Shown here in pieces: positions 417 to 17,592 of a stretch of 64,000 nucleotides of DNA. This DNA comes from Pirellula staleyi DSM 6068 (GTDB lineage Bacteria > Planctomycetota > Planctomycetia > Pirellulales > Pirellulaceae). The stretch is taken from NCBI GenBank assembly GCA_945875845.1, contig CAMCMB010000036.1, forward strand, positions 2,053 through 66,052, given 5' to 3'. The stretch's first letter is position 1; every line of letters begins with the position of its first letter. A program made the translations under genes and the position numbers. Below the pieces are notes generated by a model. The model did no database searches and was not told the origin of the DNA. It saw only the letters and a program-made list of their open reading frames with translations.

Positions 417-491
417 AGCTAACCAAAACAAGTTCAACTAGGGGCGAACAGGTCTGTTGTCGCAACGAATCAGCCATGGTACGATTTGGGA

Positions 492-944
492 ATGGCAGCA
501 AAAAAAGTGGAAAAGCAAATCGAAACGTCACCTCTATCCCGGTTGTCGCAAAACATTCGGGCGGCGCGACTCGCTGCTGGCTTAACTTTGGAGCAGTTAG
601 CGGGCGAATCGGGAATCTCCAAAACCTACCTCTGGGAACTGGAGAACGACGAGAGCGGCCAGAAGCGGCCATCGGCGGAAATACTACTTAAGGTTGCAAA
701 CATCCTTAAGACAACCATCGCAGATTTAATGGGGCTTCCGTCGGTCCAAGTCAACAAAACCAAAGTTGAAGTGAGTCCATCCCTAATCGAGTTCCGAGAC
801 ATGATGGTTAGGATCGAAACACCGCTATCAGATGAAGACCTCCATTCGCTGGCTTCAACTCGTTTTCGAGGTGGGCAGCCCACATCCAAAGAAGGCTGGT
901 ACGATCTCTACTCGGCATTGAAAAGAGCGACTGGAAGGAAATGA
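492..944 (+). CDS. XRE-family helix-turn-helix transcriptional regulator with C-terminal extension
   Basis: HTH_3-type motif LSQNIRAARLAAGLTLEQLAGESGISKTYLWELEND. The track ORF starts at TTG 486; the first ATG is at 492. The stop lies 1 nt before the ImmA start. Confidence 0.85.
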   Translation: MAAKKVEKQIETSPLSRLSQNIRAARLAAGLTLEQLAGESGISKTYLWELENDESGQKRPSAEILLKVANILKTTIADLMGLPSVQVNKTKVEVSPSLIEFRDMMVRIETPLSDEDLHSLASTRFRGGQPTSKEGWYDLYSALKRATGRK

Positions 945-945
945 A

Positions 946-1896
946 ATGCCGAGAAATTCTGGCTCTGTAAGATACCACGAACATGTAATGGCAATCATCG
1001 CGGAAATGGGGTTGGAAGATCCGCGAGAAGCAGTGCGCCAAAAAGCAAGGGTAATGCTAGGTAACCTGCTCCCACTTTTTCCTAACCCGCCGCCATTCAA
1101 CATGCAGGAAATTGCAAGTTGCATTGGACTGCATGCTTCCGATGAAGAACCCAGCTTTAGTGCAGACTCAGAGATTGCCCCCGATGGCGATGGCAATGTC
1201 GTACTACGTATTAACAAGAGTCGCCCAATAACTCGACAACGCTTTAGCATCGCACATGAAATTGGCCACACACTTTTCCCCGATTACCAACTCGCTGTGA
1301 GATGTCGCAAGGCGCATGATAAAAGATGGAATGACGATGATTTCCTGGAAACCCTCTGCGATGTCGCTGCGTCCGAATTCATGTTTCCATTGCCATGGTT
1401 TGAAAACTCCATTGCATCACTACAAATGACTGGCGAAGGGGTTGCTAGCTTGGCTGATGAGTACCAGGCGTCACGAGAAGCAACCGTACGAAGGCTCGTC
1501 GAATTGCACCCAGAACCGATGGCCGCAGTGTTCTTTAGCTGGAAACTGAAACCCGTCGAGCACAAGCAAGTTCGACGCAATGCGGAAAAGCCCTTTCTTT
1601 CCACGATCTTTCGTCCCGATGAGCCCGAAAAGAAGCTCCGCGTCGACTATCCCATCCTGAACGAATCGTTTCGCAATCACGTGCTTGACCACATACCGGT
1701 TCACAAATCGATTCCGAACGATGGTCCCATCTATCAAGCAGCGATGACACTGTCCCCGTGCGATGGAACTGCTGTCGTAAGTTTTGGGCGCATCGAAAAT
1801 GAGTACCACATTGTCGCACTACCAATCTACACCGATGAAGCCGACTTTGGACCGAACAACGCAAGTTCGGTTGTTGCATTGTTGAGGCCTATCTAG
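946..1896 (+). CDS. ImmA/IrrE-family (M78) zinc metallopeptidase
   Basis: HEXXH motif AHEIGHTLF (HEIGH at 1255-1269). About 170 aa follow the peptidase core, as in IrrE/CapP-type proteins. Classic pairing directly behind an XRE repressor. Confidence 0.85.
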   Translation: MPRNSGSVRYHEHVMAIIAEMGLEDPREAVRQKARVMLGNLLPLFPNPPPFNMQEIASCIGLHASDEEPSFSADSEIAPDGDGNVVLRINKSRPITRQRFSIAHEIGHTLFPDYQLAVRCRKAHDKRWNDDDFLETLCDVAASEFMFPLPWFENSIASLQMTGEGVASLADEYQASREATVRRLVELHPEPMAAVFFSWKLKPVEHKQVRRNAEKPFLSTIFRPDEPEKKLRVDYPILNESFRNHVLDHIPVHKSIPNDGPIYQAAMTLSPCDGTAVVSFGRIENEYHIVALPIYTDEADFGPNNASSVVALLRPI

Positions 1897-1901
1897 AGTA
1901 T

Positions 1902-4900
1902 GTGCTTTCATTATCCCCAACGATCAACGGCGAGCCCGAGCAGGTTGCACAATTGGAAATAATCGATAACATCAATCAACTTTTGGGCGACAACCTCAAA
2001 ACAACCATCGCTCCAAAATCGAAGCTTAAGATTGCCGCGTCGTGTTTTTCGATCTATGCGTTCGAATCGCTAAAGAAGGAACTCGAAAAAATCGAGTCCC
2101 TTGAGTTCATTTTCACGTCGCCAACGTTTGTTCCCAACGAAGTCACCGACAAGATCAAGAAGGAACGACGCGAGTTCTATATCCCAAAACTTGAACGCGA
2201 ACGCGGGTTCTACGGAACCGAATTCGAAATCCAACTCAAGAACAAGCTGACCCAACGAGCCATCGCCAAAGAGTGTGCTGAGTGGATGCGAAGGAAAGCT
2301 AAGTTTCGCTCCAATTCCGGCAAAGCTCCGATGCAGCAGTTTGTTTGTGTCCAAAACCCAACGTCCCAAGCCGTTTACTTGCCACTACATGGCTTCACCG
2401 CAGTTGATCTTGGCTACCAGCAAGGCAATGCTGTTTCGAACATCGTCAATAAGATTGACGAACCATCGATGACAGGGATTTATCTTGGATTATTCGACCA
2501 AATCTGGAAAGATCCTGAGAAGCTCCAAGACGTAACATCTAGTCTTTGCGACCACATTGCATCGCTCTATCAGGAAAACTCTCCCGAACGTATCTACTTC
2601 TTGATGCTTTACAACATCTTCAACGACTTCTTAGAAGATATCAGCGACGATGTTCTCCCCAACGACATGACGGGATATCAGGACAGTCTCGTCTGGAAAA
2701 AGCTGTTCAACTTCCAACGGGATGCTGCCACGGGAATCATCAACAAGTTAGAGACCTTCAACGGTTGCATTCTTGCGGACAGCGTGGGGCTTGGAAAAAC
2801 CTTCACCGCGCTCGCCGTTATCAAATACTACGAGCTTCGCAATCGTGGTGTGCTCGTTCTTTGCCCCAAGAAGCTGTCCGACAATTGGCTCACGTTTAAT
2901 CGCAACGTCAAGACAAATTTATTCGCCAAAGATCGATTCAACTATGACGTGCTGTGTCATACGGATCTTGGGCGAACTCGAGGCGAATCATTTGGCACTC
3001 GTCTCGATCAAGTCAACTGGGGCAATTACGACTTGGTCGTTATCGACGAATCGCATAACTTTCGCAATGCGGAAGCCTTCAATGAAAAGGAGACGCGATA
3101 CGACAAGCTTATGAATGCTGTCATTCGGGCAGGTGTCAAAACCAAAGTTCTGATGTTATCGGCTACCCCGGTCAATAATCGTTTCAACGATCTCAAGAAC
3201 CAACTCGCCCTTGCCTACGAGGGAGACACTGAAGCCATCAATCGCAAATTAGATACGACTCGCGACATTAGCGAGATCTTCCGACGTGCTCAGCAAGCCT
3301 TCAATGCATGGACTAAGTTGCCGGCAGATCAGCGAACCAGCGATGCGATTTTGCGGAGTCTCGATTTTGACTTCTTCAAGCTGCTTGATAGTGTCACAAT
3401 CGCGCGATCTCGACGTCACATTCAGACCTTTTACGATACTGCCGAAGCAGGCAAGTTTCCGGTTCGGCTTCCGCCACAATCCTATCGGTGTCCTCTGACT
3501 CATCGCGGTGACGTTCCCAACTTGAACGAAATCTACAACAGTTTGGCATCACTCACATTGGCAGTTTACGCTCCGGTAGCGTACATTCACCCAAGTCGAC
3601 TGCCGTTTTACGCAGAGCAATACGACACCAAATTCGAGAGCGGCAATCGCTTCCGTCAAATCGACCGAGAGCGAAGTTTGCAGAATCTGATGACGGTCAA
3701 CCTCTTGAAGCGACTTGAAAGCAGTATAGAAGCCTTCCGAATCACACTGTCAAAATTGCAGCGCGGTCACCGAAGTTTGCTGGTGAAGATTGAAAAGTTT
3801 CAGCGATCTGGCGTTTCGGATCGCGTATGCGATGCGGGCGTTGGCTACGGAAGCGGTGAGTACGACGAAGACGAGGTTCTTGACCTCGATGCTGTCACCA
3901 CTGGCAAAGTTCAAATCCGTCTTGAAGACATGGACCTGCCTTCGTGGAAAGACGATCTTCAGCGTGATCTGAAGGTCATTGACGAGCTACTAGCTGAAAT
4001 GCAGAAAGTGACGCCAAGGGACGACGCGAAATTGCAGCACTTGCTGGGTTACCTAAAAGGAAAATACGCGTCACCGATAAATCCCGGAAATCGCAAGGTC
4101 CTTATCTTCACTGCTTTCGCGGATACATCGGAATATCTTTACGAGCATGTTGCGCCAGCGATAGCAGAATATGCGGATGCTGCTGCAGGTACTGTCAATC
4201 ACACCGGCGGCCATACAGCCACTGTTTCGGGAACTTTCCCTGCAAGAAGTACGATTGTCGATGAAAGCGGTCGGCCACGACGCTACGACTTTCAATCACT
4301 ATTGACCCTGTTTTCGCCGCGTTCGAAAGAGAAATCGCTCATACTGCCAGACGAACCATCTGAGATCGACGTATTGATCGGCACCGATTGCATCTCCGAA
4401 GGGCAAAACCTGCAGGATTGCGACTGCGTTATCAATTACGACATTCATTGGAACCCAGTGCGAATCATCCAACGTTTCGGCCGCGTTGATCGGATTGGAT
4501 CGCCCAATGATTTCATTCAACTGGTCAACTATTGGCCGGACATCACACTCGATGAATACATCAATCTAAAAGAGCGGGTGGAAAACCGCATGGTAATAGC
4601 GGACATGACCGCGACTGGTGATGACAATGTTCTACTCGATGGCAATCCAGCCAACAGTGAAGTTGCATATCGCAAGGAGCAGCTTCGTCGTCTGCAAGAC
4701 GAAGTCATCGAAATGGAGGACATTAAAACGGGTGTCTCCATTACAGACCTGGGCCTAAACGATTTTCGTATGGATTTGCTCGCCTATGTCAACGCAACTG
4801 GCGATTTAGCCAACGTTCCCAATGGAATGCATAGCGTTGTACCCGCCGAACCGGATCGTGGCTTGCATCCGGGCGTGATCTTCACACTTCGCAATCGAGA

Positions 4901-5282
4901 TTCCAGCGTAAACGTGGGTGGGCATAATCGGTTGCACCCATACTATATGGTCTACGTCGGCAGCGATGGCCGGGTCGTGATGGATTACACCGAAGTCAAA
5001 CGTCTGCTCGATCTAGCACGTGCCGCCTGCAAGGGACGGTCGAAGCATGTCGCGGAAGTCTGCAAACCGTTCAACGATGCGACAGATGATGGGCGGAATA
5101 TGACTTTTTATAGCGATCTGCTCGACGTTGCCATCGGCAGCATCATCGACCGAAAAGAAGAGTCCGACGTCGAAAGTCTGTTTTCCGGCGGACCAACAAC
5201 AGCTCTCGAGGGGAACATCAAGGGTCTTGATGACTTCGAACTGATTGCTTTCCTGGTCATCTTTGACCCCAAGCGAGGGTAG
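1902..5282 (+). CDS. SNF2-family (superfamily 2) helicase, 1126 aa, with uncharacterised N-terminal (~280 aa) and C-terminal (~330 aa) regions
   Basis: Motif I LADSVGLGKTFTA (GLGKT 2787-2801), motif II VVIDESHNFRN (DESH 3045-3056), motif III LMLSATPVNN, motif V GQNLQDCDCVINYDIHWNP, motif VI QRFGRVDRIGS. GTG start 5 nt after the ImmA stop. Confidence 0.9.
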   Translation: MLSLSPTINGEPEQVAQLEIIDNINQLLGDNLKTTIAPKSKLKIAASCFSIYAFESLKKELEKIESLEFIFTSPTFVPNEVTDKIKKERREFYIPKLERERGFYGTEFEIQLKNKLTQRAIAKECAEWMRRKAKFRSNSGKAPMQQFVCVQNPTSQAVYLPLHGFTAVDLGYQQGNAVSNIVNKIDEPSMTGIYLGLFDQIWKDPEKLQDVTSSLCDHIASLYQENSPERIYFLMLYNIFNDFLEDISDDVLPNDMTGYQDSLVWKKLFNFQRDAATGIINKLETFNGCILADSVGLGKTFTALAVIKYYELRNRGVLVLCPKKLSDNWLTFNRNVKTNLFAKDRFNYDVLCHTDLGRTRGESFGTRLDQVNWGNYDLVVIDESHNFRNAEAFNEKETRYDKLMNAVIRAGVKTKVLMLSATPVNNRFNDLKNQLALAYEGDTEAINRKLDTTRDISEIFRRAQQAFNAWTKLPADQRTSDAILRSLDFDFFKLLDSVTIARSRRHIQTFYDTAEAGKFPVRLPPQSYRCPLTHRGDVPNLNEIYNSLASLTLAVYAPVAYIHPSRLPFYAEQYDTKFESGNRFRQIDRERSLQNLMTVNLLKRLESSIEAFRITLSKLQRGHRSLLVKIEKFQRSGVSDRVCDAGVGYGSGEYDEDEVLDLDAVTTGKVQIRLEDMDLPSWKDDLQRDLKVIDELLAEMQKVTPRDDAKLQHLLGYLKGKYASPINPGNRKVLIFTAFADTSEYLYEHVAPAIAEYADAAAGTVNHTGGHTATVSGTFPARSTIVDESGRPRRYDFQSLLTLFSPRSKEKSLILPDEPSEIDVLIGTDCISEGQNLQDCDCVINYDIHWNPVRIIQRFGRVDRIGSPNDFIQLVNYWPDITLDEYINLKERVENRMVIADMTATGDDNVLLDGNPANSEVAYRKEQLRRLQDEVIEMEDIKTGVSITDLGLNDFRMDLLAYVNATGDLANVPNGMHSVVPAEPDRGLHPGVIFTLRNRDSSVNVGGHNRLHPYYMVYVGSDGRVVMDYTEVKRLLDLARAACKGRSKHVAEVCKPFNDATDDGRNMTFYSDLLDVAIGSIIDRKEESDVESLFSGGPTTALEGNIKGLDDFELIAFLVIFDPKRG

Positions 5283-5284
5283 TT

Positions 5285-5983
5285 GTGAACAAAGCAGGGG
5301 GAACACTATTCGCTTGGCCGAAGCAGGCCGAGTTTGGCCGCAAATTGAATAAGGAACTATTCTACGCGGGTGCTCGCAATAATCGAAAGCTAAAAGAATT
5401 GTTCACGGATCAAGTTGCGCGTGTCGCATGGAAGTACAAGCTCGCGTCGTCGACTCTCAATACGCCAGCGACCGTCGACGTTCCCGAGATCGAAGTTATC
5501 CAGATTGATGTTAGCGGAACAGATTTTGATCCAGCTATCCTCATCGCGATCGACAAAGCAATTCCAAATCCCACTATTCACGAAATCCATAGTGCTGGGC
5601 GTGTGAAGCAATCCGCGGCCTATAAGCGAGCCAGTGAGTCGGATGCAAACGCCTGGGTCATCAGTCATTACCTCTCCAGTGACTGGCAACCCGTGGATGC
5701 TGTTCGAATGCCGCTGCCAACATCTCTTAACCTGGGCATACTCTACGCCAGTCTGCTTCGAACGATGATCGATCTACTGCCGCAAAATGGGGAACCGTTG
5801 CGATCCCATGTAGAGCGTCATGGACAAGTCCTCCAACTTCGTCGTGATGCAGAACGCATTAGTCAAAAGATGAATGCTGAAAAGCAGCTCAATCGAAAAG
5901 TCGAGTGGAACTCGCAACTTCGATCCGTCAATCAAGAAATTCAAAAACTTACAAGAACTCCATTGCAGGAATCCAATGCCTGA
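5285..5983 (+). CDS. DUF4391-like protein (function unknown)
   Basis: 232 aa. The pattern FAWPKQAEFGRKLNKELFY...VARVAWKYKLASSTLN...EIEVIQIDV...LIAIDKAIPNP matches my recollection of DUF4391. GTG start 2 nt after the helicase stop; the stop overlaps the methylase start (ATGCCTGA). Confidence 0.6.
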   Translation: MNKAGGTLFAWPKQAEFGRKLNKELFYAGARNNRKLKELFTDQVARVAWKYKLASSTLNTPATVDVPEIEVIQIDVSGTDFDPAILIAIDKAIPNPTIHEIHSAGRVKQSAAYKRASESDANAWVISHYLSSDWQPVDAVRMPLPTSLNLGILYASLLRTMIDLLPQNGEPLRSHVERHGQVLQLRRDAERISQKMNAEKQLNRKVEWNSQLRSVNQEIQKLTRTPLQESNA

Positions 5984-7844
5984 AAAGCTAAAAATGCATA
6001 GCCCGGATTTGATCGCTTCCAATATCGATTGCATTGCGGAATTGTTTCCGAACTGTGTCACTGAAGCGGCAGGCGAAAACGGCCTAGTGACACGATTGAT
6101 TGACTTTGATTTACTTCGCCAAGAGTTGTCCGGAGACATCGTCGAGGGACCGCTTGAGCGCTATCATCTCAACTGGCCTGGTAAGCGAGAGGCGATGCTG
6201 GCAGCTAACGCCCCAATCGCAAAAACGCTACGTCCCTGTCGCGAAGAAAGCGTCGACTTCGACACTACAAAAAATTTGTTCATCGAAGGCGATAATTTGG
6301 AAGCGTTGAAGCTATTGCAGGAGACTTATCTCGGCAAAGTCAAGATGATCTACATCGACCCACCATACAATACGGGAAATGACTTTATCTACGACGATGA
6401 CTTTGCAGAAGATGCGGATGCCTTTCTTTTGCGATCAGAGCAAGTAGAGGAATCGGGCGTAAGGCTCATCGCAAATAGTAACGCAAATGGGCGTTTTCAT
6501 TCCGACTGGCTTTCGATGATGCTTCCACGGCTAAAGTTAGCTCGAAATGTTCTGCGTGAAGACGGATGCATCTTCATTTCGATCGATGACAACGAGATAT
6601 CCAGTCTTCGTAAGTTGTGTGATGAAATCTTTGGGCCATCCAACTTTATTGCGACGATTGTTTGGCAAAAACGTTATGTATCGAACGTCACTGCGAAATG
6701 GCTTTCAGACATGCACGACTATGTACTTGTCTACGCGAAACAAAGTGATTTATTGACAATCAATGATTGGAAACGCACAACCGAACAGGAATCCGCATAC
6801 AGAAATCCAGACGATGACCCGCGCGGTGTATGGCGTGCTCAAGATCTTTCAGCGAGTAAACCGTATGAAGCAGGGAAATTTACAATTACAGGACCAAATG
6901 GAGATTTCTTCACTCCACCTCCAAATCGCTATTGGAGATGTAATCGCGAACAGTTCGACCGTTGGTGCAAAGACAAACGAATATGGTGGGGTGTGAACGG
7001 TGATGCTAGGCCAATGCTAAAGGCATTCCTTTCAGAATCAACACGTGGAATTAAGCCGCATACTTGGTGGGGGCATGAATTTGCCGGTCACAACAAGGAG
7101 GCCACCCTCGAGTTAAAGGCTTTGTTCGATGGCGACGCTCCGTTTGACACGCCAAAGCCCGTGAAATTAATGAAGAAAATTCTGGAACTTGTGACAAGTG
7201 AAGGTGACATTGTAATGGACTTTTTTGCCGGTTCCGCGACTTTCGCTCAAGCAGTTCTTGAAATGGGAAATGCTCGTTTCATTGCCGTTCAGGCTGGTGA
7301 GATGGTTCAAGGTATCGATTCGTCGCCGAAATTCCAAACCATTGCTGAAGTAGCAAAAGAGAGGATTCGCCGGATATGTTCATCGCAGTCTGATAAAAAC
7401 CGAATGTTTGCGGAAGATTATTACAGTGGCTTCCGTGTCCTAAAAATCGATTCGTCCAACATGAAGGATGTTTACTATTCACCACAAGATACTTCGCAGG
7501 CGATGCTAAGTGGATTGGTCGACAACATCAAGCCTGATCGGACTGGGGAGGATTTGCTGTTCCAAGTCCTACTCGACTGCGGCGTTGACCTGGGACTTCC
7601 CCTGAAGCGAGAAACGCTCGACAATTGTGAAGTGTTCATCGTTAATGAAAGCAAGCACACGGTTCCCGATCTGATCGCCTGCTTCGAGGTAGATTTGCCT
7701 GAATCGCTTGTCACAACCATCGCTGACAAAAAGCCGCTGCGAGCCGTGTTTCGCGATCAATGCTACGCGACCGACGCTGAAAAAATCAACGTAGAACAAA
7801 TCTTCAAGCAACTATCGCCCAACACACAATTAAAGAGCCTCTAA
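5976..7844 (+). CDS. Site-specific DNA methyltransferase, beta-class N6A/N4C (Type III Mod-like, N6_N4_Mtase family)
   Basis: Motif IV IYIDPPYNTGNDF (DPPY 6357-6368) precedes motif I VMDFFAGSATFAQAV, which is the beta-class order. The track ORF starts at 5874, but ATG 5976 (MPEKLKMHSPD...) overlaps the upstream stop by 8 nt and is the likelier start. Confidence 0.9.
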   Translation: MPEKLKMHSPDLIASNIDCIAELFPNCVTEAAGENGLVTRLIDFDLLRQELSGDIVEGPLERYHLNWPGKREAMLAANAPIAKTLRPCREESVDFDTTKNLFIEGDNLEALKLLQETYLGKVKMIYIDPPYNTGNDFIYDDDFAEDADAFLLRSEQVEESGVRLIANSNANGRFHSDWLSMMLPRLKLARNVLREDGCIFISIDDNEISSLRKLCDEIFGPSNFIATIVWQKRYVSNVTAKWLSDMHDYVLVYAKQSDLLTINDWKRTTEQESAYRNPDDDPRGVWRAQDLSASKPYEAGKFTITGPNGDFFTPPPNRYWRCNREQFDRWCKDKRIWWGVNGDARPMLKAFLSESTRGIKPHTWWGHEFAGHNKEATLELKALFDGDAPFDTPKPVKLMKKILELVTSEGDIVMDFFAGSATFAQAVLEMGNARFIAVQAGEMVQGIDSSPKFQTIAEVAKERIRRICSSQSDKNRMFAEDYYSGFRVLKIDSSNMKDVYYSPQDTSQAMLSGLVDNIKPDRTGEDLLFQVLLDCGVDLGLPLKRETLDNCEVFIVNESKHTVPDLIACFEVDLPESLVTTIADKKPLRAVFRDQCYATDAEKINVEQIFKQLSPNTQLKSL

Positions 7845-7914
7845 GACTCTGAATTGCGGATTCAAAAACGCTCCTTCCTCATTCTCAAATAGTCATTCAC
7901 CCTCTGCTCCTTTC

Positions 7915-9606
7915 ATGACTCGAACTGAAACAGAATTGCAAAAACTGCTAATCCAGCTCATTTCAGATTGGGAGAGCGAAGTCGTGGAGTTCAAGAGCGT
8001 TGGAGACTCGTATTCTACGTCCGATATCGGCAAGTACTTGACCGCATTATCAAACGAAGCAAATTTGCGTGAAGTTGAGACGGCGTGGTTGGTTTTCGGT
8101 GTCGACAACAAGACGCGTCAGATCGTTGACTCGGACTACCGTCGCGATCGTGCTAGACTCGAAGGACTAAAGCATCAGATGACCGAGGGAAGTTCTCCTT
8201 CCATTTGTTTTCGCGAGATCCACGAAATCGCCGTCGCAGGCAAACGGGTGCTGATGTTCGAGATACCCGCCGCCCCACGTGGTATCGCAATTAGCTGGAA
8301 TGGACACTTCTATGCACGCAGTGGGGAAAGCCTAGGACCGCTTTCCATCGTAAAGCAAGACGAGATCCGCGGTCAAACCTTGCAGACGGACTGGACTGCC
8401 GCTGTGGTCTCTGAAGCGTCGCGAGCAGATCTGTCCGATGCGGCTGTTTCGCAGGCACGCGCTCGATTCGCTCTTCGTCACGCAAATCAGTTTACAAACG
8501 ACGAAATCGAAGCCTGGGACGATGCAGCGTTTCTGGATCGAGCCGGTCTGACAATCAACGGCATGATTACTAGATCGGCTCTGTTACTCGTCGGTAAACC
8601 GGATTCGGTCCATCTCCTCAGCCCATATCTCGCTCAACTAGTTTGGAAGCTGGTTGGCGTGGAAGCTGGCAATCAGATTTTTACGCCACCCTACTTGCTT
8701 GCGACGAGTGCTCTCTATGAAAAGGTGCGCAACGTGCAACTGAGGATACTTCCAGCCGATTCGTTAGTCGCGATTGAAGTTGCTAAATACGACCAAAAGA
8801 TTGTTCTTGAATCGCTGCACAATTGCATAGCCCACCAAGACTACCGTCTCGGGGCACGCGTGGTCGTAACGGAGATGATCGATCGCTTGGTCTTGGAGAA
8901 TTCGGGATCGTTTGTCGATGGTGAGCCGCTGGATTACCTGTCGGGTCATAAAACGCCTAGGTTTTATCGCAATCCGTTTTTGATGCAAGCGATGACACGG
9001 CTGAACATGATCGATACGATGGGCTATGGAATTCACAGAATGTTCGTTGGGCAAGCGAAACGTTATTTCCCGCTTCCGGACTATGACCTATCGGAATCGG
9101 GAACGGTTAGACTCACCATCCACGGGGCGATTGTTGATCCTGCATACTCGCGGGTTTTGATTGAGAACACCGATTTGCCTCTGCAAGATGTGTTCGCTCT
9201 TGATCGCGTTCAAAAGCAACTACCCATTGATGATGTAGCCACGAAACGATTGCGTCGCGCAGGATTGATCGAAGGAAGGCGTCCGAACATCCATATTTCC
9301 GGCAACGTAGCATCGGCAACAGATCGACGAGCCGAGTACATTCGAAATCGCCATCAAGATGACATTCATTACAAGCGACTGATCTTAGATTTCCTAAGTC
9401 GGTTTGATTCTGCTGGCAGGGAGGATATCGATAAAATGCTATTGAAGAACCTAAGCGACGTTTTGACGGAGGACCAGAAGCGAAACCGGGTGCGTAACCT
9501 GCTTCAGTCCATGCGTCGGGACGGGCTGATCGAGAATCTTGGCCCGCGGGTTCAACCGACCTGGTCGCTGACAACCATCGGGCGTTCCGCATTAACTAAA
9601 TCATGA
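7915..9606 (+). CDS. AlbA_2 (Schlafen-like divergent AAA) + HATPase_c_4 + C-terminal winged-helix protein; putative ATP-binding DNA-binding regulator
   Basis: N-terminus ESEVVEFKSVGDSYSTSDIGKYLTALSNEANL...AWLVFGVDNKTRQIV is AlbA_2-like. The middle region ESLHNCIAHQDY...LVLENSGSF is HATPase_c_4-like. C-terminus LLQSMRRDGLIENLG is wHTH-like. Confidence 0.7.
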   Translation: MTRTETELQKLLIQLISDWESEVVEFKSVGDSYSTSDIGKYLTALSNEANLREVETAWLVFGVDNKTRQIVDSDYRRDRARLEGLKHQMTEGSSPSICFREIHEIAVAGKRVLMFEIPAAPRGIAISWNGHFYARSGESLGPLSIVKQDEIRGQTLQTDWTAAVVSEASRADLSDAAVSQARARFALRHANQFTNDEIEAWDDAAFLDRAGLTINGMITRSALLLVGKPDSVHLLSPYLAQLVWKLVGVEAGNQIFTPPYLLATSALYEKVRNVQLRILPADSLVAIEVAKYDQKIVLESLHNCIAHQDYRLGARVVVTEMIDRLVLENSGSFVDGEPLDYLSGHKTPRFYRNPFLMQAMTRLNMIDTMGYGIHRMFVGQAKRYFPLPDYDLSESGTVRLTIHGAIVDPAYSRVLIENTDLPLQDVFALDRVQKQLPIDDVATKRLRRAGLIEGRRPNIHISGNVASATDRRAEYIRNRHQDDIHYKRLILDFLSRFDSAGREDIDKMLLKNLSDVLTEDQKRNRVRNLLQSMRRDGLIENLGPRVQPTWSLTTIGRSALTKS

Positions 9607-9816
9607 CCAGTTTTAGCTAATCAACAGTGAGTCCTAGCTGAAAAGTCGCTCCTAACGAACCTGCAAACCCTTGCCTGGAAAGCACTTAGAGCGAAAGACA
9701 TCGCATCATTCTAGCAAACGTTAGCTGGAAGAGACAACCAAATCCAAATTGAGTAAAGAACCAAATCTGCAAAATCATTCCGTGAGGAACCTAGGGAATT
9801 TGCGAGCCCCAATACG

Positions 9817-12800
9817 ATGAAAATTCAATTCAAAGTCCAAGATTACCAAACCGACGCAGTCCGGGCTGTCGTCGACTGTTTCGCCGGTCAGCCGCTCATT
9901 GCGACGCCGGATTATGAGATTGACCCTGGCGTAAATAAGAAACGAATCAAGCCGGTTGGACAGTTTACCCAACAAGACCTTCTCGACTCGCTCAAATTCG
10001 AGGGCTTTCGCAACGCCGATCTTCGTTTAACCATTTCTCAGCTGCTTGCAAACATTCAACAGATACAGCTCGAGCAAAACATCCCACAGTCTATATCGCT
10101 AGTTCCAAGCCAGTCATGCAAACTCAATCTCGATATCGAGATGGAAACCGGTACTGGCAAAACCTACTGCTACATCAAGACGATGTTCGAACTGCATGAG
10201 AAGTACGGATGGAATAAATTCATTGTTGTTGTCCCGAGCATTGCGATTCGCGAAGGGGTTCAAAAGTCATTCGAGATCACCGCTGAGCATTTTCTGCAAC
10301 AGTATGGTAGGCAGGCACGCCACTTTACTTACGACAGCAAGCAATTGCACGAATTGGAGAGCTTTTCATCTAACGCCGGTATTAATGTGATGATCATCAA
10401 CGCACAGGCGTTCAATGCATTCAAGGAGGACGCCGCGAACAATGCGGCCCGGATCATGTTCTCGCAACGAGATGACTTTCAATCTCGTCGTCCCATCGAT
10501 GTTCTAAAGAAGAACAAACCGATTCTGATCCTCGATGAACCGCAACGTATGGTGGGAACACAGACAGTAAAAGCCTTGGCTCAGTTCGATCCGCTTATGA
10601 TCCTGCGATACTCGGCGACACATAAGGTGGAGCACAATAAAATCTACCGGCTAGACGCTTTGGATGCCTACAACCAAAAACTGGTAAAGAAGATCGCGGT
10701 TCGCGGAATCGCGACGAAAGGGCTCAAGGGCACAAACGGCTATCTTTACCTAGAAAGCATCCGCCTGAGTAAAAGCAAACCGCCAGTTGGGGTTTTGGAA
10801 ATCGAACAGAAAACCGCGAGCGGAATTAAGCGGATTCGGAAATTGGTTAGTAAGAATACGAACCTCTTTGTCGAGTCGGGTGAACTAGATCAATACCAAG
10901 GCTTTGTCGTGGCCGACATCGACGCTCGCGGAGTGGAGGGCTTCGGCGAAGGATACATCGAGTTTACCAACGGAGAGCGTCTGACGGTCGGCACCGCTTG
11001 TGGCGATACGAATGAGGATACACTTCGTCGGCTTCAAATTCGCGAATCGATTAAAGCTCACTTTGAGAAGGAGCAAGAGCTTTATCCTAAGGGAATCAAG
11101 GTTCTCTCGCTTTTCTTCATCGACACTGTAGCCAAGTATCGCCAATACGACAAAGATGGCAACAAGCTTCTAGCGGACTATGGCCGATTTTTCGAGGACG
11201 AGTATGCAAAGATCCGGGAAGAATTTCGGACGTTGTTCGCTGAAGAAGCAAAGTACCAGTCCTACCTGGACGGCATAGATACCGCTCATACGCACGATGG
11301 CTACTTCTCGATCGACAAAAAGGGGCGATTGGTTGATCCTGAAGTTAAAAAGTCGGGAGACACCAAAGGTGAGACCGACGATGTCGATGCCTATGACCTT
11401 ATCCTAAAGGATAAAGAAACGCTTTTGTCCTTGCCTACGCAAGACGATGATGACCTGTCTCGACGGAGAAAGAATGTACGGTTCATCTTCTCGCACTCAG
11501 CACTTCGCGAGGGATGGGACAATCCGAATGTATTCGTGATCGGCATGCTCAAGCCGACTGACTACGAGGGGTCAACTGTCACGCGTCGCCAAGAGGTCGG
11601 CCGAGGACTGCGACTATGCGTTGATGCGACGGGCCAAAGGATTGACGACAAAGCAATTGTCCACGATGTCAACGTTCTAACTGTTGTCGCCAACGAGAGC
11701 TTCCAAGAGTTTGTAACCAAGCTTCAAGGCGAAATGCGAGAGTCTCTGTCAGCTCGCCCTCGATATGCGAGTGAAGTGTATTTTACAGGCAAACTATTGC
11801 GAACAGAGACAGGGGACAAGACAGTCGACGCCAAGATGGCTTCTCAAATCTTTTTTTACCTTGTTCAAAACGGGTATACGGATTACGACAAACGCATTAC
11901 TTCGAAGTACCACGATGCAAAACAGAATGGGGTTCTTGCCGAACTTCCTGAGTCACTGAAGCCTTTCGCCGAACCGATATTCAAACTCATCGATAGCGTT
12001 TTCGACGATTCGAAATTGCCAGGCTTCGGCAACGGCCGAAGCCCGAAGGGAAACCCTATCAATGCGAAAAACTTGGCTCGCAAAGAGTTTCAAGATCTGT
12101 GGAATAGAATCAATCATAAAGCCGTATATGTGGTTGATTTTGAAACAGATGAACTCATCGTCAACTGCGTCGGGACCCTCAACGCAGAATTGAACGTGTC
12201 AAAGCTTCGATACGAGGTCCACCGCGGCGTTCAAAAAGACGTTAACACGGTAGATGATCTCGATAACGGTACTGCGTTCGAGGTAAACGGGAACCAAACC
12301 GACATTGTCGATTCACCTGTCTCGACCGATATTCGTTACGACTTAGTTGGAAAGCTCAGTGAGGCGACACAACTAACTCGGAAGACAGTAGTCAGTATCT
12401 TGTCACGAATAAGTCCCATCACTTTTGAAATGTTTCGCATAAATCCCGAAGAATTTCTCGCCAAGGCTGCTAGCAAGATAAACGAGCAAAAAGCGACAAT
12501 CATCATCGAGCATTTGGTTTACAACCCACTCGATGGACAGCATTACACGGACATTTTCACCGCAGACAAGAAGGCTGACATATCCAGTGCATACGAAGCG
12601 CAGCGACACGTCTTCGACTATGTAATCACCGATAGCAAAAATGAACGTACCTTTGTCGAGACGCTAGACAAATCAACCGAAGTCGTTGTTTACGCCAAGC
12701 TCCCCAGGGCATTCTCAATACCAACGCCAGTCGGTAACTACAACCCCGACTGGGCGGTTGCATTCGAGCAAGACAAAGTCAAGCATGTTTTCTTCATCGC

Positions 12801-12954
12801 GGAAACCAAGGGCAGCATGAACTCGCTCGAACTGAATAAGATCGAGACCGCGAAAATCGCATGCGCCCGGAAGTTCTTCGCGAAGATTACGTCGGAACAA
12901 GTCAAATATGATGTAGTGGATAGCTACGCGACACTAATGGGACTGGTGATTTAG
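9817..12954 (+). CDS. Type III restriction enzyme Res subunit (SF2 helicase-ATPase + C-terminal PD-(D/E)xK nuclease)
   Basis: Walker A LDIEMETGTGKTYC and DEAH-like PILILDEPQRM. C-terminal YNPDWAVAF...VFFIAETKG, with D at 12748-12750 and E-T-K at 12802-12810. Confidence 0.85.
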   Translation: MKIQFKVQDYQTDAVRAVVDCFAGQPLIATPDYEIDPGVNKKRIKPVGQFTQQDLLDSLKFEGFRNADLRLTISQLLANIQQIQLEQNIPQSISLVPSQSCKLNLDIEMETGTGKTYCYIKTMFELHEKYGWNKFIVVVPSIAIREGVQKSFEITAEHFLQQYGRQARHFTYDSKQLHELESFSSNAGINVMIINAQAFNAFKEDAANNAARIMFSQRDDFQSRRPIDVLKKNKPILILDEPQRMVGTQTVKALAQFDPLMILRYSATHKVEHNKIYRLDALDAYNQKLVKKIAVRGIATKGLKGTNGYLYLESIRLSKSKPPVGVLEIEQKTASGIKRIRKLVSKNTNLFVESGELDQYQGFVVADIDARGVEGFGEGYIEFTNGERLTVGTACGDTNEDTLRRLQIRESIKAHFEKEQELYPKGIKVLSLFFIDTVAKYRQYDKDGNKLLADYGRFFEDEYAKIREEFRTLFAEEAKYQSYLDGIDTAHTHDGYFSIDKKGRLVDPEVKKSGDTKGETDDVDAYDLILKDKETLLSLPTQDDDDLSRRRKNVRFIFSHSALREGWDNPNVFVIGMLKPTDYEGSTVTRRQEVGRGLRLCVDATGQRIDDKAIVHDVNVLTVVANESFQEFVTKLQGEMRESLSARPRYASEVYFTGKLLRTETGDKTVDAKMASQIFFYLVQNGYTDYDKRITSKYHDAKQNGVLAELPESLKPFAEPIFKLIDSVFDDSKLPGFGNGRSPKGNPINAKNLARKEFQDLWNRINHKAVYVVDFETDELIVNCVGTLNAELNVSKLRYEVHRGVQKDVNTVDDLDNGTAFEVNGNQTDIVDSPVSTDIRYDLVGKLSEATQLTRKTVVSILSRISPITFEMFRINPEEFLAKAASKINEQKATIIIEHLVYNPLDGQHYTDIFTADKKADISSAYEAQRHVFDYVITDSKNERTFVETLDKSTEVVVYAKLPRAFSIPTPVGNYNPDWAVAFEQDKVKHVFFIAETKGSMNSLELNKIETAKIACARKFFAKITSEQVKYDVVDSYATLMGLVI

Positions 12955-12957
12955 GAA

Positions 12958-13722
12958 ATGAACCTTCAATTGTTTGACGAGACGTTTGAGCATTTGCCCT
13001 CTTCGCCGATCGTGGAGTCGGTTATTCAATGGACAGCGAGAGCAAGCGTTGCCGCGAATGATACCACTTGGCATAATCGCTTTTCGGAACTACTGCCGGA
13101 GTTTCCGAAGGCTCAGCCTGTGCACTGGCAATCAATCGAAACGATGATCGATTCTGACGGGTCGTCTCAGCAGACGGTGAATCGGCCTTGGATTGGCTTG
13201 CGTCTGGAGAGCGAAGACAGCACATGGATCGTGCAAGCTGATTGGCAGGGCGTGATTCTCAGTCGCTTGAGCCCCTACGTTGGTTGGACAGAATTCTCGA
13301 CGCTTGGAATCAAGGTTTGGAAGTCGTTCCTTGCGTGTACTCAACCGACAGAGATCCAAAAGCTCGGCGTTCGATCGATCAATCAAATCCCTATCGAATC
13401 TTTTGACGACGTACGTTATTATCTTAAACACCCGCCTGAGTGCTTAGATGACGCAGAGCTACCGGCAATGGGGTTTATGTACCAAAGTTTGCATCGAATC
13501 CCAAACCATCCTTATCAGGTAAACGTAATCCGCACTATCCCTCCCAAGAATTTGGGAACCACCGTACCGCCTAGCCTCATTGTAGATATTGATGCTATGA
13601 CAACTGATGGTCACTTAGAAGTGGGTAGTACCCAGGAACACTTTAAGGCCCTAAAATGGGTTAAGGACAAGACGTTTTTCAACTTAATTACCGATAAAGC
13701 AATCGAGATGTTTCGAAAATGA
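12958..13722 (+). CDS. Hypothetical protein, TIGR04255-like
   Basis: 254 aa. SPIVESVIQW near the N-terminus, then GVRSINQIPI, SLIVDIDAMT and C-terminal FFNLITDKAIEMF resemble the conserved blocks I recall for TIGR04255. Starts 3 nt after the Res stop. Confidence 0.5.
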   Translation: MNLQLFDETFEHLPSSPIVESVIQWTARASVAANDTTWHNRFSELLPEFPKAQPVHWQSIETMIDSDGSSQQTVNRPWIGLRLESEDSTWIVQADWQGVILSRLSPYVGWTEFSTLGIKVWKSFLACTQPTEIQKLGVRSINQIPIESFDDVRYYLKHPPECLDDAELPAMGFMYQSLHRIPNHPYQVNVIRTIPPKNLGTTVPPSLIVDIDAMTTDGHLEVGSTQEHFKALKWVKDKTFFNLITDKAIEMFRK

Positions 13723-14171
13723 CAAGGTTCACCACGGGGTTTAGCGACGCGGCTCAAATGGCAAGTCGATACTTGGTTGAGCAAGTTAACGGTATGCGTC
13801 GATCTCAGACTTTCGGTCTGGACAGCGAGCTTCGAGAGGAACTAGGAGACGTTTGGAGCGAATGCCAGACAGATAACTGGGATGGGTACAAAGCGTTGCC
13901 AGTGTCTCAGGATACCTTGCAACAAGTCTATGAATTGCTTGAGGAGCTTCCGGATGATTTTCCAGCTCCAAGCTTGTCTGCTGATCCAGATGGTGCTTTA
14001 GCCCTTGAGTGGTATACTTCCAAAGACCGGCAAATCTCCGTTAGTATCATTGATGGTGAGATTCATTATGCCGCGAAATTGGGCTCCGAGCGCCACCATG
14101 GCAACTATTTGCTGGTCGATGGCTGGCCGAAGTCGTTGTTTTCTTTGATTCAGAAAATTGCTGGTCGATGA
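13719..14171 (+). CDS. Hypothetical protein (150 aa)
   Basis: ATGA overlap with both the upstream and the downstream gene. Protein-like composition, including NWDGYKALPVS...PAPSLSADPDGALALEW. I recognised no domain. Confidence 0.6.
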   Translation: MTRFTTGFSDAAQMASRYLVEQVNGMRRSQTFGLDSELREELGDVWSECQTDNWDGYKALPVSQDTLQQVYELLEELPDDFPAPSLSADPDGALALEWYTSKDRQISVSIIDGEIHYAAKLGSERHHGNYLLVDGWPKSLFSLIQKIAGR

Positions 14172-14614
14172 TTGACGAAAACGATGTTCCCGATATCGAC
14201 GGCCGCGAAGAGCTTTCACGATGCGTCGTTTACAGCAAACATATCCGAGCTCCGAAGCCTGACGGTTCAGAACTTGGACGAGTTAAACCAAACGCATTCG
14301 TTCCGCATCCGTATGACGATTTGTCTGTAAACAGCCACGTGCAATCGACTGATGCTGAAATTTGGCTTCTTTGCCGCAACGTTGCTTTGAAGCAACAAAA
14401 GACGTTGTATGGCCGAGCAACAGTACTCGCAAGTGACTTTCAGTCGAAGAAGTTGACAATACAACCTGATCCCATTCGAGCTGACGAAGACAGCGAATTC
14501 CCCAACCCAAATCACGCGATCGTCGTAGGCTGGCCAGCTGAGAAGTCTGCCCAGATCGCAATCGCGCAAGACATTGCGGATAGTTGTAGGTTCTCTGAGC
14601 CGCCTAGCAACTAG
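14168..14614 (+). CDS. Hypothetical protein (148 aa)
   Basis: 4-nt ATGA overlap with the preceding gene. Plausible globular sequence (ELSRCVVYSKHIR...VKPNAFVPHPYDDLSVNSH...NPNHAIVVGWPAEKSAQIAIAQDIA). I prefer it over the antisense ORF 14267-14854. Confidence 0.6.
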   Translation: MIDENDVPDIDGREELSRCVVYSKHIRAPKPDGSELGRVKPNAFVPHPYDDLSVNSHVQSTDAEIWLLCRNVALKQQKTLYGRATVLASDFQSKKLTIQPDPIRADEDSEFPNPNHAIVVGWPAEKSAQIAIAQDIADSCRFSEPPSN

Positions 14615-14854
14615 CAATACAGCCGATGGAGTAGATTGCGTGGAGCTGGCGACCGGATCTGCACGGCTTACTTCGAACTCTATCCAAAGTCGTTTTTGTC
14701 CATCATCACGAGTAAGTAACACGTCGGCGCGTGCGGAATAACCGAGCACAGGTTGCCACTCTGTGTCTAGAACGTCAACTTCGTGTGTGCAGGTCCATCC
14801 TGCCGGACACGCAGCGGCGAAACGCTCTTGGAGAAATCCGGTTAAGCTTCCCAA
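14615..14854 (-). pseudogene. 5' remnant of a disrupted gene at the island's right junction
   Basis: The first ~70 aa of ORF 14267-14854(-) read like real protein (MGSLTGFLQERFAAACPAGWTCTHEVDVLDTEWQPVLGYSARADVLLTRDDGQKRLWIEFEVSRADPVA). The remainder is antisense to CDS 14168-14614 and is Cys/Arg/Leu-rich. Confidence 0.35.
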
Positions 14855-16880: not shown

Positions 16881-17592
16881 GCGCTAGCCTGGGCTGTTAA
16901 AAATCTGGTATTGACACTACATTCCGACAGATCATTTTTGTTCCTTTCGCTGGGAAGTAAAGTAGTGAAACCGCAACGTGAAGTTTAGGGTTTTTCTCTC
17001 CCCTTCTCCTCCTGTAATCAGGAGGAGAAGGGGCCGGGGGGATGAGGAGGTTGGAGCTAGACATGAAGTGGCAAGCCCAAGACGATTTCGCCAAACACCT
17101 ACGCCGAGCCTCCACGCCCGCGGAATATTTGATGTGGCAAGTTGTTCGTAATCGACAACGATGCCAAGCCAAGTTTCGACGACAACATAAACTCGGGCCT
17201 TACGTCTTGGACTTTTTCTGCCCTGAAGCGAAGCTTGCTGTCGAATGCGATGGACTACCGCACTTCACTCTGGAAGGAATCAAGAAGGATCGAATTCGAA
17301 CCCAATGGCTCAATCAACAAGGTATCGAAGTAATTAGGTTTACGAGTCATGAGATCGAGAACGACACGCAACGGGTTATGTTTGCGATCGACGTCGCCTT
17401 AAAAAAGCACATCAAGCAGGACCAACCTCCTCATCCCCCAACCCCTTCTCCTCCCGAGGAGGAGAAGGGGAGTTAGAACATCAGCTTCGCGATGTAGTAG
17501 CGGCGTTCGAATGGACTTGCCGATTGGAACAAAAACTGCGCAACCAAAAGCCGTGCCCATACCAGATTTTTAACAGCCCAGCGCTAGCCCTC
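16881..17592. repeat. Nested inverted-repeat cassette enclosing the DUF559 ORF (possibly a MITE-like mobile cassette)
   Basis: Outer inverted repeat: TGGGCTGTTAAAAATCTGGTAT at 16890-16911 versus its perfect reverse complement at 17559-17580. Inner ~55-bp inverted repeats at 16998-17054 and 17422-17472, each containing its own hairpin CCCCTTCTCCTCC..GGAGGAGAAGGGG. Confidence 0.6.
17042..17476 (+). CDS. DUF559 (Vsr-like endonuclease fold) domain protein
   Basis: AEYLMWQVVRNRQRCQAKFRRQHKLGPYVLDFFCPEAKLAVECDG...QGIEVIRFTSHEI. The N- and C-terminal codons (MRRLE.., ..PSPPEEEKGS) lie inside the inner inverted repeats. Confidence 0.8.
   Translation: MRRLELDMKWQAQDDFAKHLRRASTPAEYLMWQVVRNRQRCQAKFRRQHKLGPYVLDFFCPEAKLAVECDGLPHFTLEGIKKDRIRTQWLNQQGIEVIRFTSHEIENDTQRVMFAIDVALKKHIKQDQPPHPPTPSPPEEEKGS

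Follow-up and report, generated by a model that had tools for sequence, protein, structure and literature searches.

A conserved SNF2–DUF4391–Mod–Res core with local additions at a Type III restriction–modification locus of Pirellula staleyi

Introduction

A stretch of 64,000 nucleotides from Pirellula staleyi DSM 6068 (contig CAMCMB010000036.1, positions 2,053 to 66,052), hereafter called the window, carries near its start ten co-directional genes on the + strand (486–14614). An earlier note on this DNA, made from the letters alone, had put the ten forward as a candidate composite or undescribed anti-phage system. Here, we compare the locus with approximately 190 relatives drawn from genomes, plasmids, viral contigs and metagenomes. 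Only four of the window genes are common to related loci, namely those for an SNF2-family ATPase, a DUF4391 protein, and the modification (Mod) and restriction (Res) subunits of a Type III restriction–modification enzyme. What deserves attention is hence a smaller unit than the one put forward in the earlier note, though with a much wider distribution: a Type III system joined by SNF2 and DUF4391.

A Type III enzyme is generally considered complete with its two subunits. SNF2 helicases are also found in DISARM, BREX type 3, BREX-related (BR) systems and Zorya, where their role is debated. That a large Type III clade should nearly always bring along a highly conserved SNF2 motor, and with it a protein whose fold is unknown, suggests that restriction or its control has a layer so far unrecognised, and current annotation tools would report only ‘RM type III’, missing two of the four genes.

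Gene content of the locus

The coordinates of the ten genes and their spacings (1, 5, 2, −8, 70, 210, 3, −4 and −4 nt) were reproduced in the list of open reading frames (ORFs), and the domain assignments of the ten proteins were recovered by Pfam, PADLOC and NCBIfam searches. The genes are listed below with their supporting matches.

486–944 (+): XRE-family helix-turn-helix (HTH) repressor, CapH-like (Pfam HTH_3, 3e-11; PADLOC capH, 9.5e-15)
946–1896 (+): M78/ImmA-IrrE-type metallopeptidase, CapP-like (Pfam Peptidase_M78, 1.9e-11; PADLOC capP, 1.6e-23)
1902–5282 (+): SNF2-family ATPase, 1126 amino acids (aa), core gene 1 (Pfam SNF2-rel_dom and Helicase_C)
5285–5983 (+): DUF4391 protein, 232 aa, core gene 2 (Pfam DUF4391, 5e-47)
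5976–7844 (+): Type III Mod, core gene 3 (N6_N4_Mtase; PADLOC MTase_III, 2.6e-210)
7915–9606 (+): Schlafen/AlbA_2 and HATPase_c_4 protein, 563 aa, cargo (Pfam SLFN_AlbA_2, HATPase_c_4)
9817–12954 (+): Type III Res, core gene 4 (PADLOC REase_III, 4e-294; Pfam ResIII and RE_endonuc, 7e-34)
12958–13722 (+): TIGR04255-family protein, 254 aa, cassette gene 1 (NCBIfam TIGR04255, 2.7e-29)
13719–14171 (+): acidic 150-aa protein without a Pfam match, cassette gene 2
14168–14614 (+): acidic 148-aa protein without a Pfam match, cassette gene 3

The ORF list places the Mod start at 5874; we took 5976, which gives the −8 spacing and is likely the start, since residue 36 is where the PADLOC Mod profile begins to align and an overlap of −8 is also seen in close relatives. 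The motif coordinates of the earlier note proved exact for DESH in SNF2 (3045–3056), DPPY in Mod (6357–6368) and the PD...ETK nuclease motif in Res (12748–12810).

A four-gene core conserved across phyla

The core clade comprises at least 521 confirmed matches in a collection holding one genome per species, together with 44 plasmids. From the DUF4391-anchored search of that collection (521 confirmed matches), the best 80 loci were analysed by tblastn with the ten window proteins and by ORF clustering (81 loci clustered). In essentially every one of these best 80 of 521 loci that reaches far enough, the four genes stand on one strand in the order SNF2–DUF4391–Mod–Res. The loci span Planctomycetota, Alpha-, Beta- and Gammaproteobacteria (Pseudomonadota), Acidobacteriota, Verrucomicrobiota, Actinomycetota and Myxococcota, with the closest DUF4391 relatives of the window in Pirellulaceae-type planctomycetes. 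The same order recurs in 24 IMG/VR contigs and in three annotated plasmids (an E. coli IncFIB plasmid, Acinetobacter NEB149 pMsp65 and Aeromonas pAhD4-1), even at 24–27% DUF4391 identity. Furthermore, a related chromosomal locus is present in 165 of 5,426 complete E. coli genomes, and DUF4391 lies on 14 E. coli plasmids. Conservation of gene order across genomes, one of the checks that the earlier note had named, shows the co-directional packing to be more than chance for these four genes and not for the other six.

The linkage was also approached from the Res side, with a profile of 20 Res sequences scanned on metagenomes and a DUF4391 hidden Markov model (HMM) run on all locus ORFs. Of 48 informative loci obtained in this way, 43 contain SNF2 and DUF4391; the pair lies upstream of Mod–Res in 40, the order is permuted in three, the pair is missing from two, and three are ambiguous. 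The permuted order, Mod–Res–SNF2–DUF4391, occurs on human-gut metagenome contigs (L163 1–8521, L165 1512–10736 and L178 7992–17135), and because all four genes are retained there, the linkage survives rearrangement. SNF2–DUF4391 without Mod–Res was not seen in any of the 107 DUF4391-anchored and 43 Res-anchored loci in which the contig reached far enough. The dependence is asymmetric: SNF2–DUF4391 is always accompanied by Mod–Res, and Mod–Res occasionally stands alone. The view that the locus is more than a plain Type III system was therefore correct, SNF2 and DUF4391 being tightly and almost universally linked to this Mod/Res clade.

Several individual loci are of interest in their own right. 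One E. coli plasmid (CP099103, IncFIB) holds the four genes as a compact, cargo-free unit beside repA (L091, 3213–12241), and also encodes dnaE, recA-like and exonuclease genes. On Acinetobacter NEB149 pMsp65, Mod is separated from Res by an IS1-like element (L092, 14302–15003); a literature search found no NEB149 methylome paper. SNF2, Mod or Res is split into two to four ORFs in five loci (L020, L026, L048, L075 and L076), as pseudogenes or through assembly frameshifts. DUF4391 is also present in two uncultured gut phage records, and therefore the system appears to travel on phage-like elements as well.

Inheritance of the core as a unit

Pairwise distances were compared over the 86 loci in which all four proteins are full length. 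The correlations (rho) are 0.91 for SNF2 and Res, 0.89 for SNF2 and DUF4391, and 0.87 for DUF4391 and Res, and the conserved core of Mod correlates with the other three proteins at 0.77–0.82. The Mod recognition domain correlates with nothing (0.01–0.07). Mean pairwise identity is 66% for SNF2, 62% for Res, 62% for the Mod core, 42% for DUF4391 and 24% for the recognition domain. As judged from these distances, the four core genes are inherited as a unit, and the target-recognition domain of Mod is swapped independently, the usual restriction–modification pattern.

Partial co-variation places DUF4391 closest to SNF2: the value of 0.47 is the strongest for DUF4391 and was reached by none of 300 permutations. 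Between DUF4391 and the recognition domain, the partial r is 0.11, reached by 24 of 300 permutations. Since DUF4391 co-varies with SNF2 and not with the recognition domain, it looks like a partner of SNF2, not a target-site reader; the idea that it reads the target site of Mod was ruled out, its divergence not tracking that domain.

The Type III enzyme

Type III enzymes are characterized by hemi-methylation of an asymmetric site and by ATP-dependent cleavage that needs two unmethylated sites. The Mod protein of the window is a beta-class N6-adenine methyltransferase with DPPY and FAGSAT motifs, arranged as in Type III Mod subunits, with motif IV (DPPY) before motif I (FxGxG) and the recognition domain between them. 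Its PDB sequence matches are H. pylori Mod (6k0w, 1e-67) and EcoP15I Mod (4zcf_A, 1e-53), and a dip in conservation marks the variable target-recognition domain at residues ~221–400. The mod gene contains no phase-variation repeats. Res combines a superfamily 2 (SF2) ATPase with a C-terminal PD-(D/E)xK nuclease, as Type III Res subunits do, and its only PDB sequence relative is EcoP15I Res (4zcf_C, 5e-57). The Mod motifs are invariant, as are the Walker A, DEPQ, SAT, motif VI and PD...ExK elements of Res (20 sequences). Against the NCBIfam model of the canonical family, Res scores 361 bits, below the cut-off of 564. With all catalytic motifs intact, the assignment of Mod and Res as a bona fide Type III restriction–modification pair is well founded.

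The SNF2 and DUF4391 proteins

The motor of the SNF2 protein is split into lobes at residues ~263–433 and ~817–887, followed by a conserved C-terminal region. In 60 orthologues across phyla, its ATPase motifs (GLGKT, DESH, SAT and QRFGRxDRIG) reach at least 90% conservation, so that ATPase competence is predicted on good grounds. The best PADLOC match is the ‘HKD+Snf2’ model C3a139 (1.8e-124), which covers residues 198–1119 only.

Residues 1–262 have no Pfam match, and the family of this N-terminal domain counts 2,011 representatives at 50% identity. When an AlphaFold2 (AF2) model of these residues was searched with Foldseek, the top matches were the phospholipase D (PLD) nuclease domains of SauUSI and NgoAVII (E 3e-5), with further matches to FAM83, PssA, TrmBL2, Tdp1 and Zucchini. 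The model thus points to a PLD-fold domain at residues ~18–250. No histidine is invariant or near-invariant in the alignment of this domain (A3), and because a conserved histidine is missing, the HKD catalytic motif appears to be gone and the domain to be nuclease-dead. The representative search that gave the family size listed close relatives only, none with an active HKD being available to align. Pfam recognised no other nuclease domain in the protein. As a separate observation, the DNA encoding this domain (1902–2687) matches the phage family phrog_26785 (2.6e-29), a 1087-residue model without an assigned function.

DUF4391 is modelled with high confidence (AF2; mean predicted local distance difference test, pLDDT, 91.7) as an alpha/beta domain that continues into a long C-terminal hairpin of helices. 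The model has no structural neighbour in the PDB (best E 0.05, TM ≤0.22) or among the viral models of BFVD; a PD-(D/E)xK or other known nuclease or reader fold was accordingly rejected, a confident model having found no match in either set, which left the protein without an assigned fold. In other genomes, a 4-nt overlap with the SNF2 stop is usual for the DUF4391 gene. A DUF4391 model is absent from both PADLOC v2 and NCBIfam (2026). The searchable literature mentions neither PF14335 nor TIGR04255 and contains no mention of a DUF4391 function; its occurrences of the name are an enrichment table and a typo for DUF7941.

Cargo and other local additions

The DUF4391|Mod and Mod|Res junctions of the core are insertion slots. 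In the window, the AlbA_2/HATPase gene occupies the latter, flanked by spacers of 70 and 210 nt. Clustering placed its relatives in 11 of 81 loci, without exception between Mod and Res, and several metagenome loci have it there too. In the slots of other loci stand Fic, DUF2130, DUF2779, OLD-family ATPase-nuclease, PLD-like, SIR2 with HerA, DUF1016/YhcG, AAA_21 or RhuM genes; among these, Fic, PLD-like, DUF1016/YhcG, AAA_21 and RhuM are known from the Mod|Res slot. Moreover, the cargo differs even among close planctomycete relatives. On this distribution, AlbA_2/HATPase is one of many alternative inserts and not a core gene. A search of its sequence against the PDB returned no significant match.

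The XRE and M78 genes in front of the core have the layout of a CapH/CapP pair, with an XRE HTH gene adjoining an M78 (HExxH) gene upstream of an immune operon and gaps of 1 and 5 nt. The M78 protein carries the HEIGH motif within SIAHEIGHTLF. Functionally, CapH/CapP is defined by repressor cleavage that is stimulated by single-stranded DNA or DNA damage and de-represses the operon. The likeness lies in gene order and position just upstream of a defence operon; the differences are that the window M78 protein is longer (316 aa), with only residues 50–197 matching capP, and that pairing with an SNF2–DUF4391 system is seen in the window alone. Among 96 loci examined for same-strand genes just upstream of SNF2, 15 have small HTH_17 proteins, six have WYL regulators (including E. 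coli H5) and one, the window itself, has M78. No XRE or M78 homologue was found in the 80 DUF4391-anchored genome loci, and both are singletons in the clustering. The two genes are predicted regulators that are lineage-specific and lie outside the conserved core. For many immune operons, CapH/CapP itself has been documented to act as a switch that responds to DNA damage (Lau et al. 2022, bioRxiv 10.1101/2022.04.27.489752).

The three genes behind Res likewise have no homologue in the 80 DUF4391-anchored genome loci and are singletons in the clustering. They recur as a conserved cassette (254, 150 and ~150 aa) in six other loci (L085–L090), in which the third gene is 55–71% identical and the middle gene, for which only 18 homologue clusters were found, always lies between homologues of genes 1 and 3 where intact. 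Three of these loci (L085–L087) place the cassette behind a different Type III Res (34% identical) that is itself preceded by Fic, and L088–L090 carry it without any Res; the cassette is therefore a separate module. The window DNA at 12853–14604 is 80.7% identical to L085–L087, nucleotide homology to L085 ending at 14604, and a 35-residue remnant of a window-like Res C-terminus precedes the cassette (L085 4869–4973, also in L086 and L087). This arrangement suggests an exchange of restriction systems beside a cassette that remained in place as the fixed flank. In L082 (173–1479), and also in L083 and L084, decayed fragments of Mod (residues 413–511), Res (165–201) and TIGR04255 (192–254) lie one after another ahead of a ninth gene that is intact, in what looks like the deletion scar of a whole system.

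The only functional lead for the cassette is a pair of weak, partial PADLOC matches, of the second gene to PDC-M32A (positions 270–328 of 375, 4e-4) and of the third to PDC-M32B (6e-4); PDC-M32 is a PADLOC candidate system that is itself only putative. None of the three proteins has a significant match among PDB sequences. A distant TIGR04255 gene on the Crinalium plasmid pCRI9333.03 (L198, 5992–7822) has two small genes behind it (182 and 171 aa, one of them overlapping), which show no BLASTP similarity to the ninth and tenth genes of the window.

Comparison with known systems

Mod and Res are full-length homologues of EcoP15I, and resemble the EcoP15I/EcoP1I (Mod2Res) enzymes in their motifs and in the variable middle domain of Mod. 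Unlike canonical Type III systems, this clade is almost always preceded by SNF2 (with its putatively dead PLD fold) and DUF4391, which co-diverge with Mod and Res, and operons of the window type possess two slots that collect other defence genes.

Class 1 DISARM consists of DrmD (an SNF2 protein), DrmMI, DrmA, DrmB and DrmC. Common to DISARM and the window are an SNF2 helicase and an adenine methylase in one operon, as well as a PLD element, which in DISARM is a separate protein (DrmC). The DrmD match, however, reaches 146 bits against a cut-off of 610, the DrmA and DrmD HMMs match the helicase motifs of SNF2 only, and the nuclease of the window is a Type III Res. The ten proteins include neither DrmA nor DrmB (DUF1998), and DISARM was ruled out for want of this core pair. 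BREX was excluded too, as no PglZ phosphatase or BrxC ATPase domain or HMM match was found among the ten proteins. On both counts, the earlier note, which had seen none of the defining genes of these systems here, was right.

The same note had been reminded of Hma by the helicase, methylase and ATPase content of the locus. Hma, or Type-1 BR, combines HmaA (SNF2 with a NOV_C nuclease), HmaB (DUF1156) and HmaC (DUF499) (Payne 2021; Liu 2024, PMC11232893). The likeness extends to the insertion of defence genes within the operon, which is seen in 66.5% of hma loci (Liu 2024, PMC11232893). The resemblance nevertheless fails, since Hma is defined by SNF2 with NOV_C/DUF3883, a DUF1156 methylase and a DUF499 ATPase, and Pfam finds no NOV_C/DUF3883, DUF1156 or DUF499 in the window proteins; the HmaA match (2e-23) covers helicase motifs alone. 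Membership in Hma was ruled out on gene composition.

The nearest described helicase belongs to Type-2 BR, which comprises a DUF499 ATPase, a DUF1156 N6-methylase, an HKD-Swi2/Snf2 helicase and a standalone DUF3780 protein (Rakesh & Krishnan 2026, PMC12839542). The SNF2 helicases of the two are homologous (the C3a139 match given above), the N-terminal domain of the window protein is modelled with a PLD fold, and both systems bring together an SNF2 motor, a small standalone alpha+beta protein of unknown fold, a methylase, a second large ATPase and auxiliary effectors. In Type-2 BR, HKD-SNF2 is the proposed effector (PMC12839542), whereas the HKD histidine is not conserved in window-type SNF2, which is therefore probably not the nuclease. 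Nor did Pfam detect DUF499, DUF1156 or DUF3780 in the ten proteins, the window having a Type III Mod and Res instead. DUF4391 is not the DUF3780 of Type-2 BR; relatedness of the two was not compared. No name or model for the four-gene unit was found in PADLOC v2, NCBIfam or the searchable literature, REBASE and paper supplements lying outside the search.

Proposed mechanism and its alternatives

The earlier description of the locus as composite is borne out by comparison with other genomes, which separates a conserved core from local additions. We consider it fairly probable that the window holds a modular defence locus, in which a co-inherited unit of SNF2 (with a dead PLD fold), DUF4391, Mod and Res has acquired three local additions and SNF2–DUF4391 works with the Type III enzyme. 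By the established Type III mechanism, Mod would methylate a single strand of an asymmetric site that its exchangeable recognition domain specifies, and Res would use ATP and its PD-ExK nuclease to cut DNA with unmethylated sites. SNF2 and DUF4391 may form a complex, as suggested by their translational coupling and by the co-variation of DUF4391 being strongest with SNF2, and this pair is probably a sequence-independent, ATP-driven DNA motor working with the Type III enzyme. Such a motor could extend, speed up or license restriction; without an HKD histidine in the PLD domain, it would be Res that does the cutting. By analogy with CapH/CapP, the XRE/M78 pair may de-repress the operon upon DNA damage or infection. 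The AlbA_2/HATPase cargo is probably a second-line defence gene, and the TIGR04255 cassette could be an independent additional defence or accessory module.

More tentatively, and with slightly less conviction than doubt, we suggest that SNF2–DUF4391–Mod–Res may represent a distinct, widespread four-component class of restriction–modification systems, whose Type III enzyme would depend on, or be altered by, a motor and a new-fold adaptor, and which would form a bridge to the BREX-related and DISARM systems. A nuclease-dead SNF2 partnered with a nuclease and a methylase that are both well understood would offer a clean model of motor function, and the native cargo-free versions in E. coli make the motor role directly testable. 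The locus also shows Type III operons as landing pads for other defence genes.

Several points weigh against a motor that works with the Type III enzyme. Two loci, L119 and L168, carry Mod–Res without SNF2–DUF4391 although at least 2.5 kb of sequence is available on both sides; in L119 (85–12378), Mod–RhuM–Res directly follows murD–ftsW–murG and precedes a DUF2334 gene, and its Res is 58% identical to that of the window. Because Mod–Res stands alone in both, restriction does not necessarily depend on SNF2–DUF4391. In other loci, cargo can be inserted between DUF4391 and Mod, so the two halves of the core (SNF2–DUF4391 and Mod–Res) are not translationally coupled. Promoter, terminator and inverted-repeat scans of the spacers gave nothing above chance and so did not define the transcription units. 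Furthermore, the model of SNF2 residues 1–262 is of moderate confidence (pLDDT 72.6), the putative loss of nuclease activity is deduced from a missing histidine, and the roles proposed for SNF2 and DUF4391 derive from linkage only. Each scan also kept the 80 best matches, and very distant DUF4391 members may behave differently.

The loci with Mod–Res alone would equally suit a self-sufficient two-gene SNF2–DUF4391 defence system, for example with a helicase effector or acting by abortive infection, that co-travels with the Type III enzyme on mobile defence islands. Other defence genes do insert freely between DUF4391 and Mod, and in other systems related SNF2 proteins serve as effectors: HmaA on its own gives protection against T4 (Liu 2024, PMC11232893), and the HKD-SNF2 of Type-2 BR is proposed to be one. 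We nevertheless regard independence as unlikely, given that the pair is never seen without Mod–Res, that the four distance matrices are tightly correlated (0.77–0.91) and that the linkage is kept in permuted gene order; the SNF2 protein, moreover, lacks a conserved HKD histidine and any other recognisable nuclease. The asymmetric dependence could also be taken to mean that SNF2–DUF4391 is a guard or backup, silent until phage anti-restriction proteins disable Mod or Res, like PrrC in a Type I locus. The faster evolution of DUF4391 (42% against 62–66% mean identity) is as expected of a protein facing phage inhibitors, and operons of this kind are known to accommodate second-line genes. This seems less likely again than an independent pair, as no toxic effector domain was recognised in SNF2 or DUF4391, the PLD domain is without a catalytic histidine, and the strong conservation of SNF2 across phyla fits a core enzymatic role better than that of a sensor.

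The earlier note's proposal that all ten genes work together as one anti-phage system draws on how closely the co-directional genes are packed (overlaps of −8, −4 and −4 nt, gaps of 1–5 nt), and the trio does stand again behind a Type III Res in L085–L087. That Res is only 34% identical, though, and the trio is found without one in L088–L090; the XRE, M78, TIGR04255 and two small genes have no counterpart in the 80 DUF4391-anchored loci, M78 precedes SNF2 only in the window, and AlbA_2, present in 11 of 81 loci, gives way to unrelated genes elsewhere, close planctomycete relatives included. A ten-gene unit is thus very improbable.

Surroundings of the locus

The window begins 485 nt before the XRE gene; searched for by exact match, the XRE protein turned up on no other contig. 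No integrase is present among the window proteins scanned, the whole window not having been scanned for one, and the window contains no tRNA. A 195-aa ORF without a family match (14267–14854, − strand) lies antisense to the tenth gene and is probably spurious, because the sense gene is conserved at the protein level in other contigs. From ~15 kb onward, the window is housekeeping chromosome (CysRS, ArgRS and HisG); among these genes, 2.4 kb downstream of the locus, a 144-aa ORF (17042–17476, + strand) encodes DUF559, a Vsr-like endonuclease domain.

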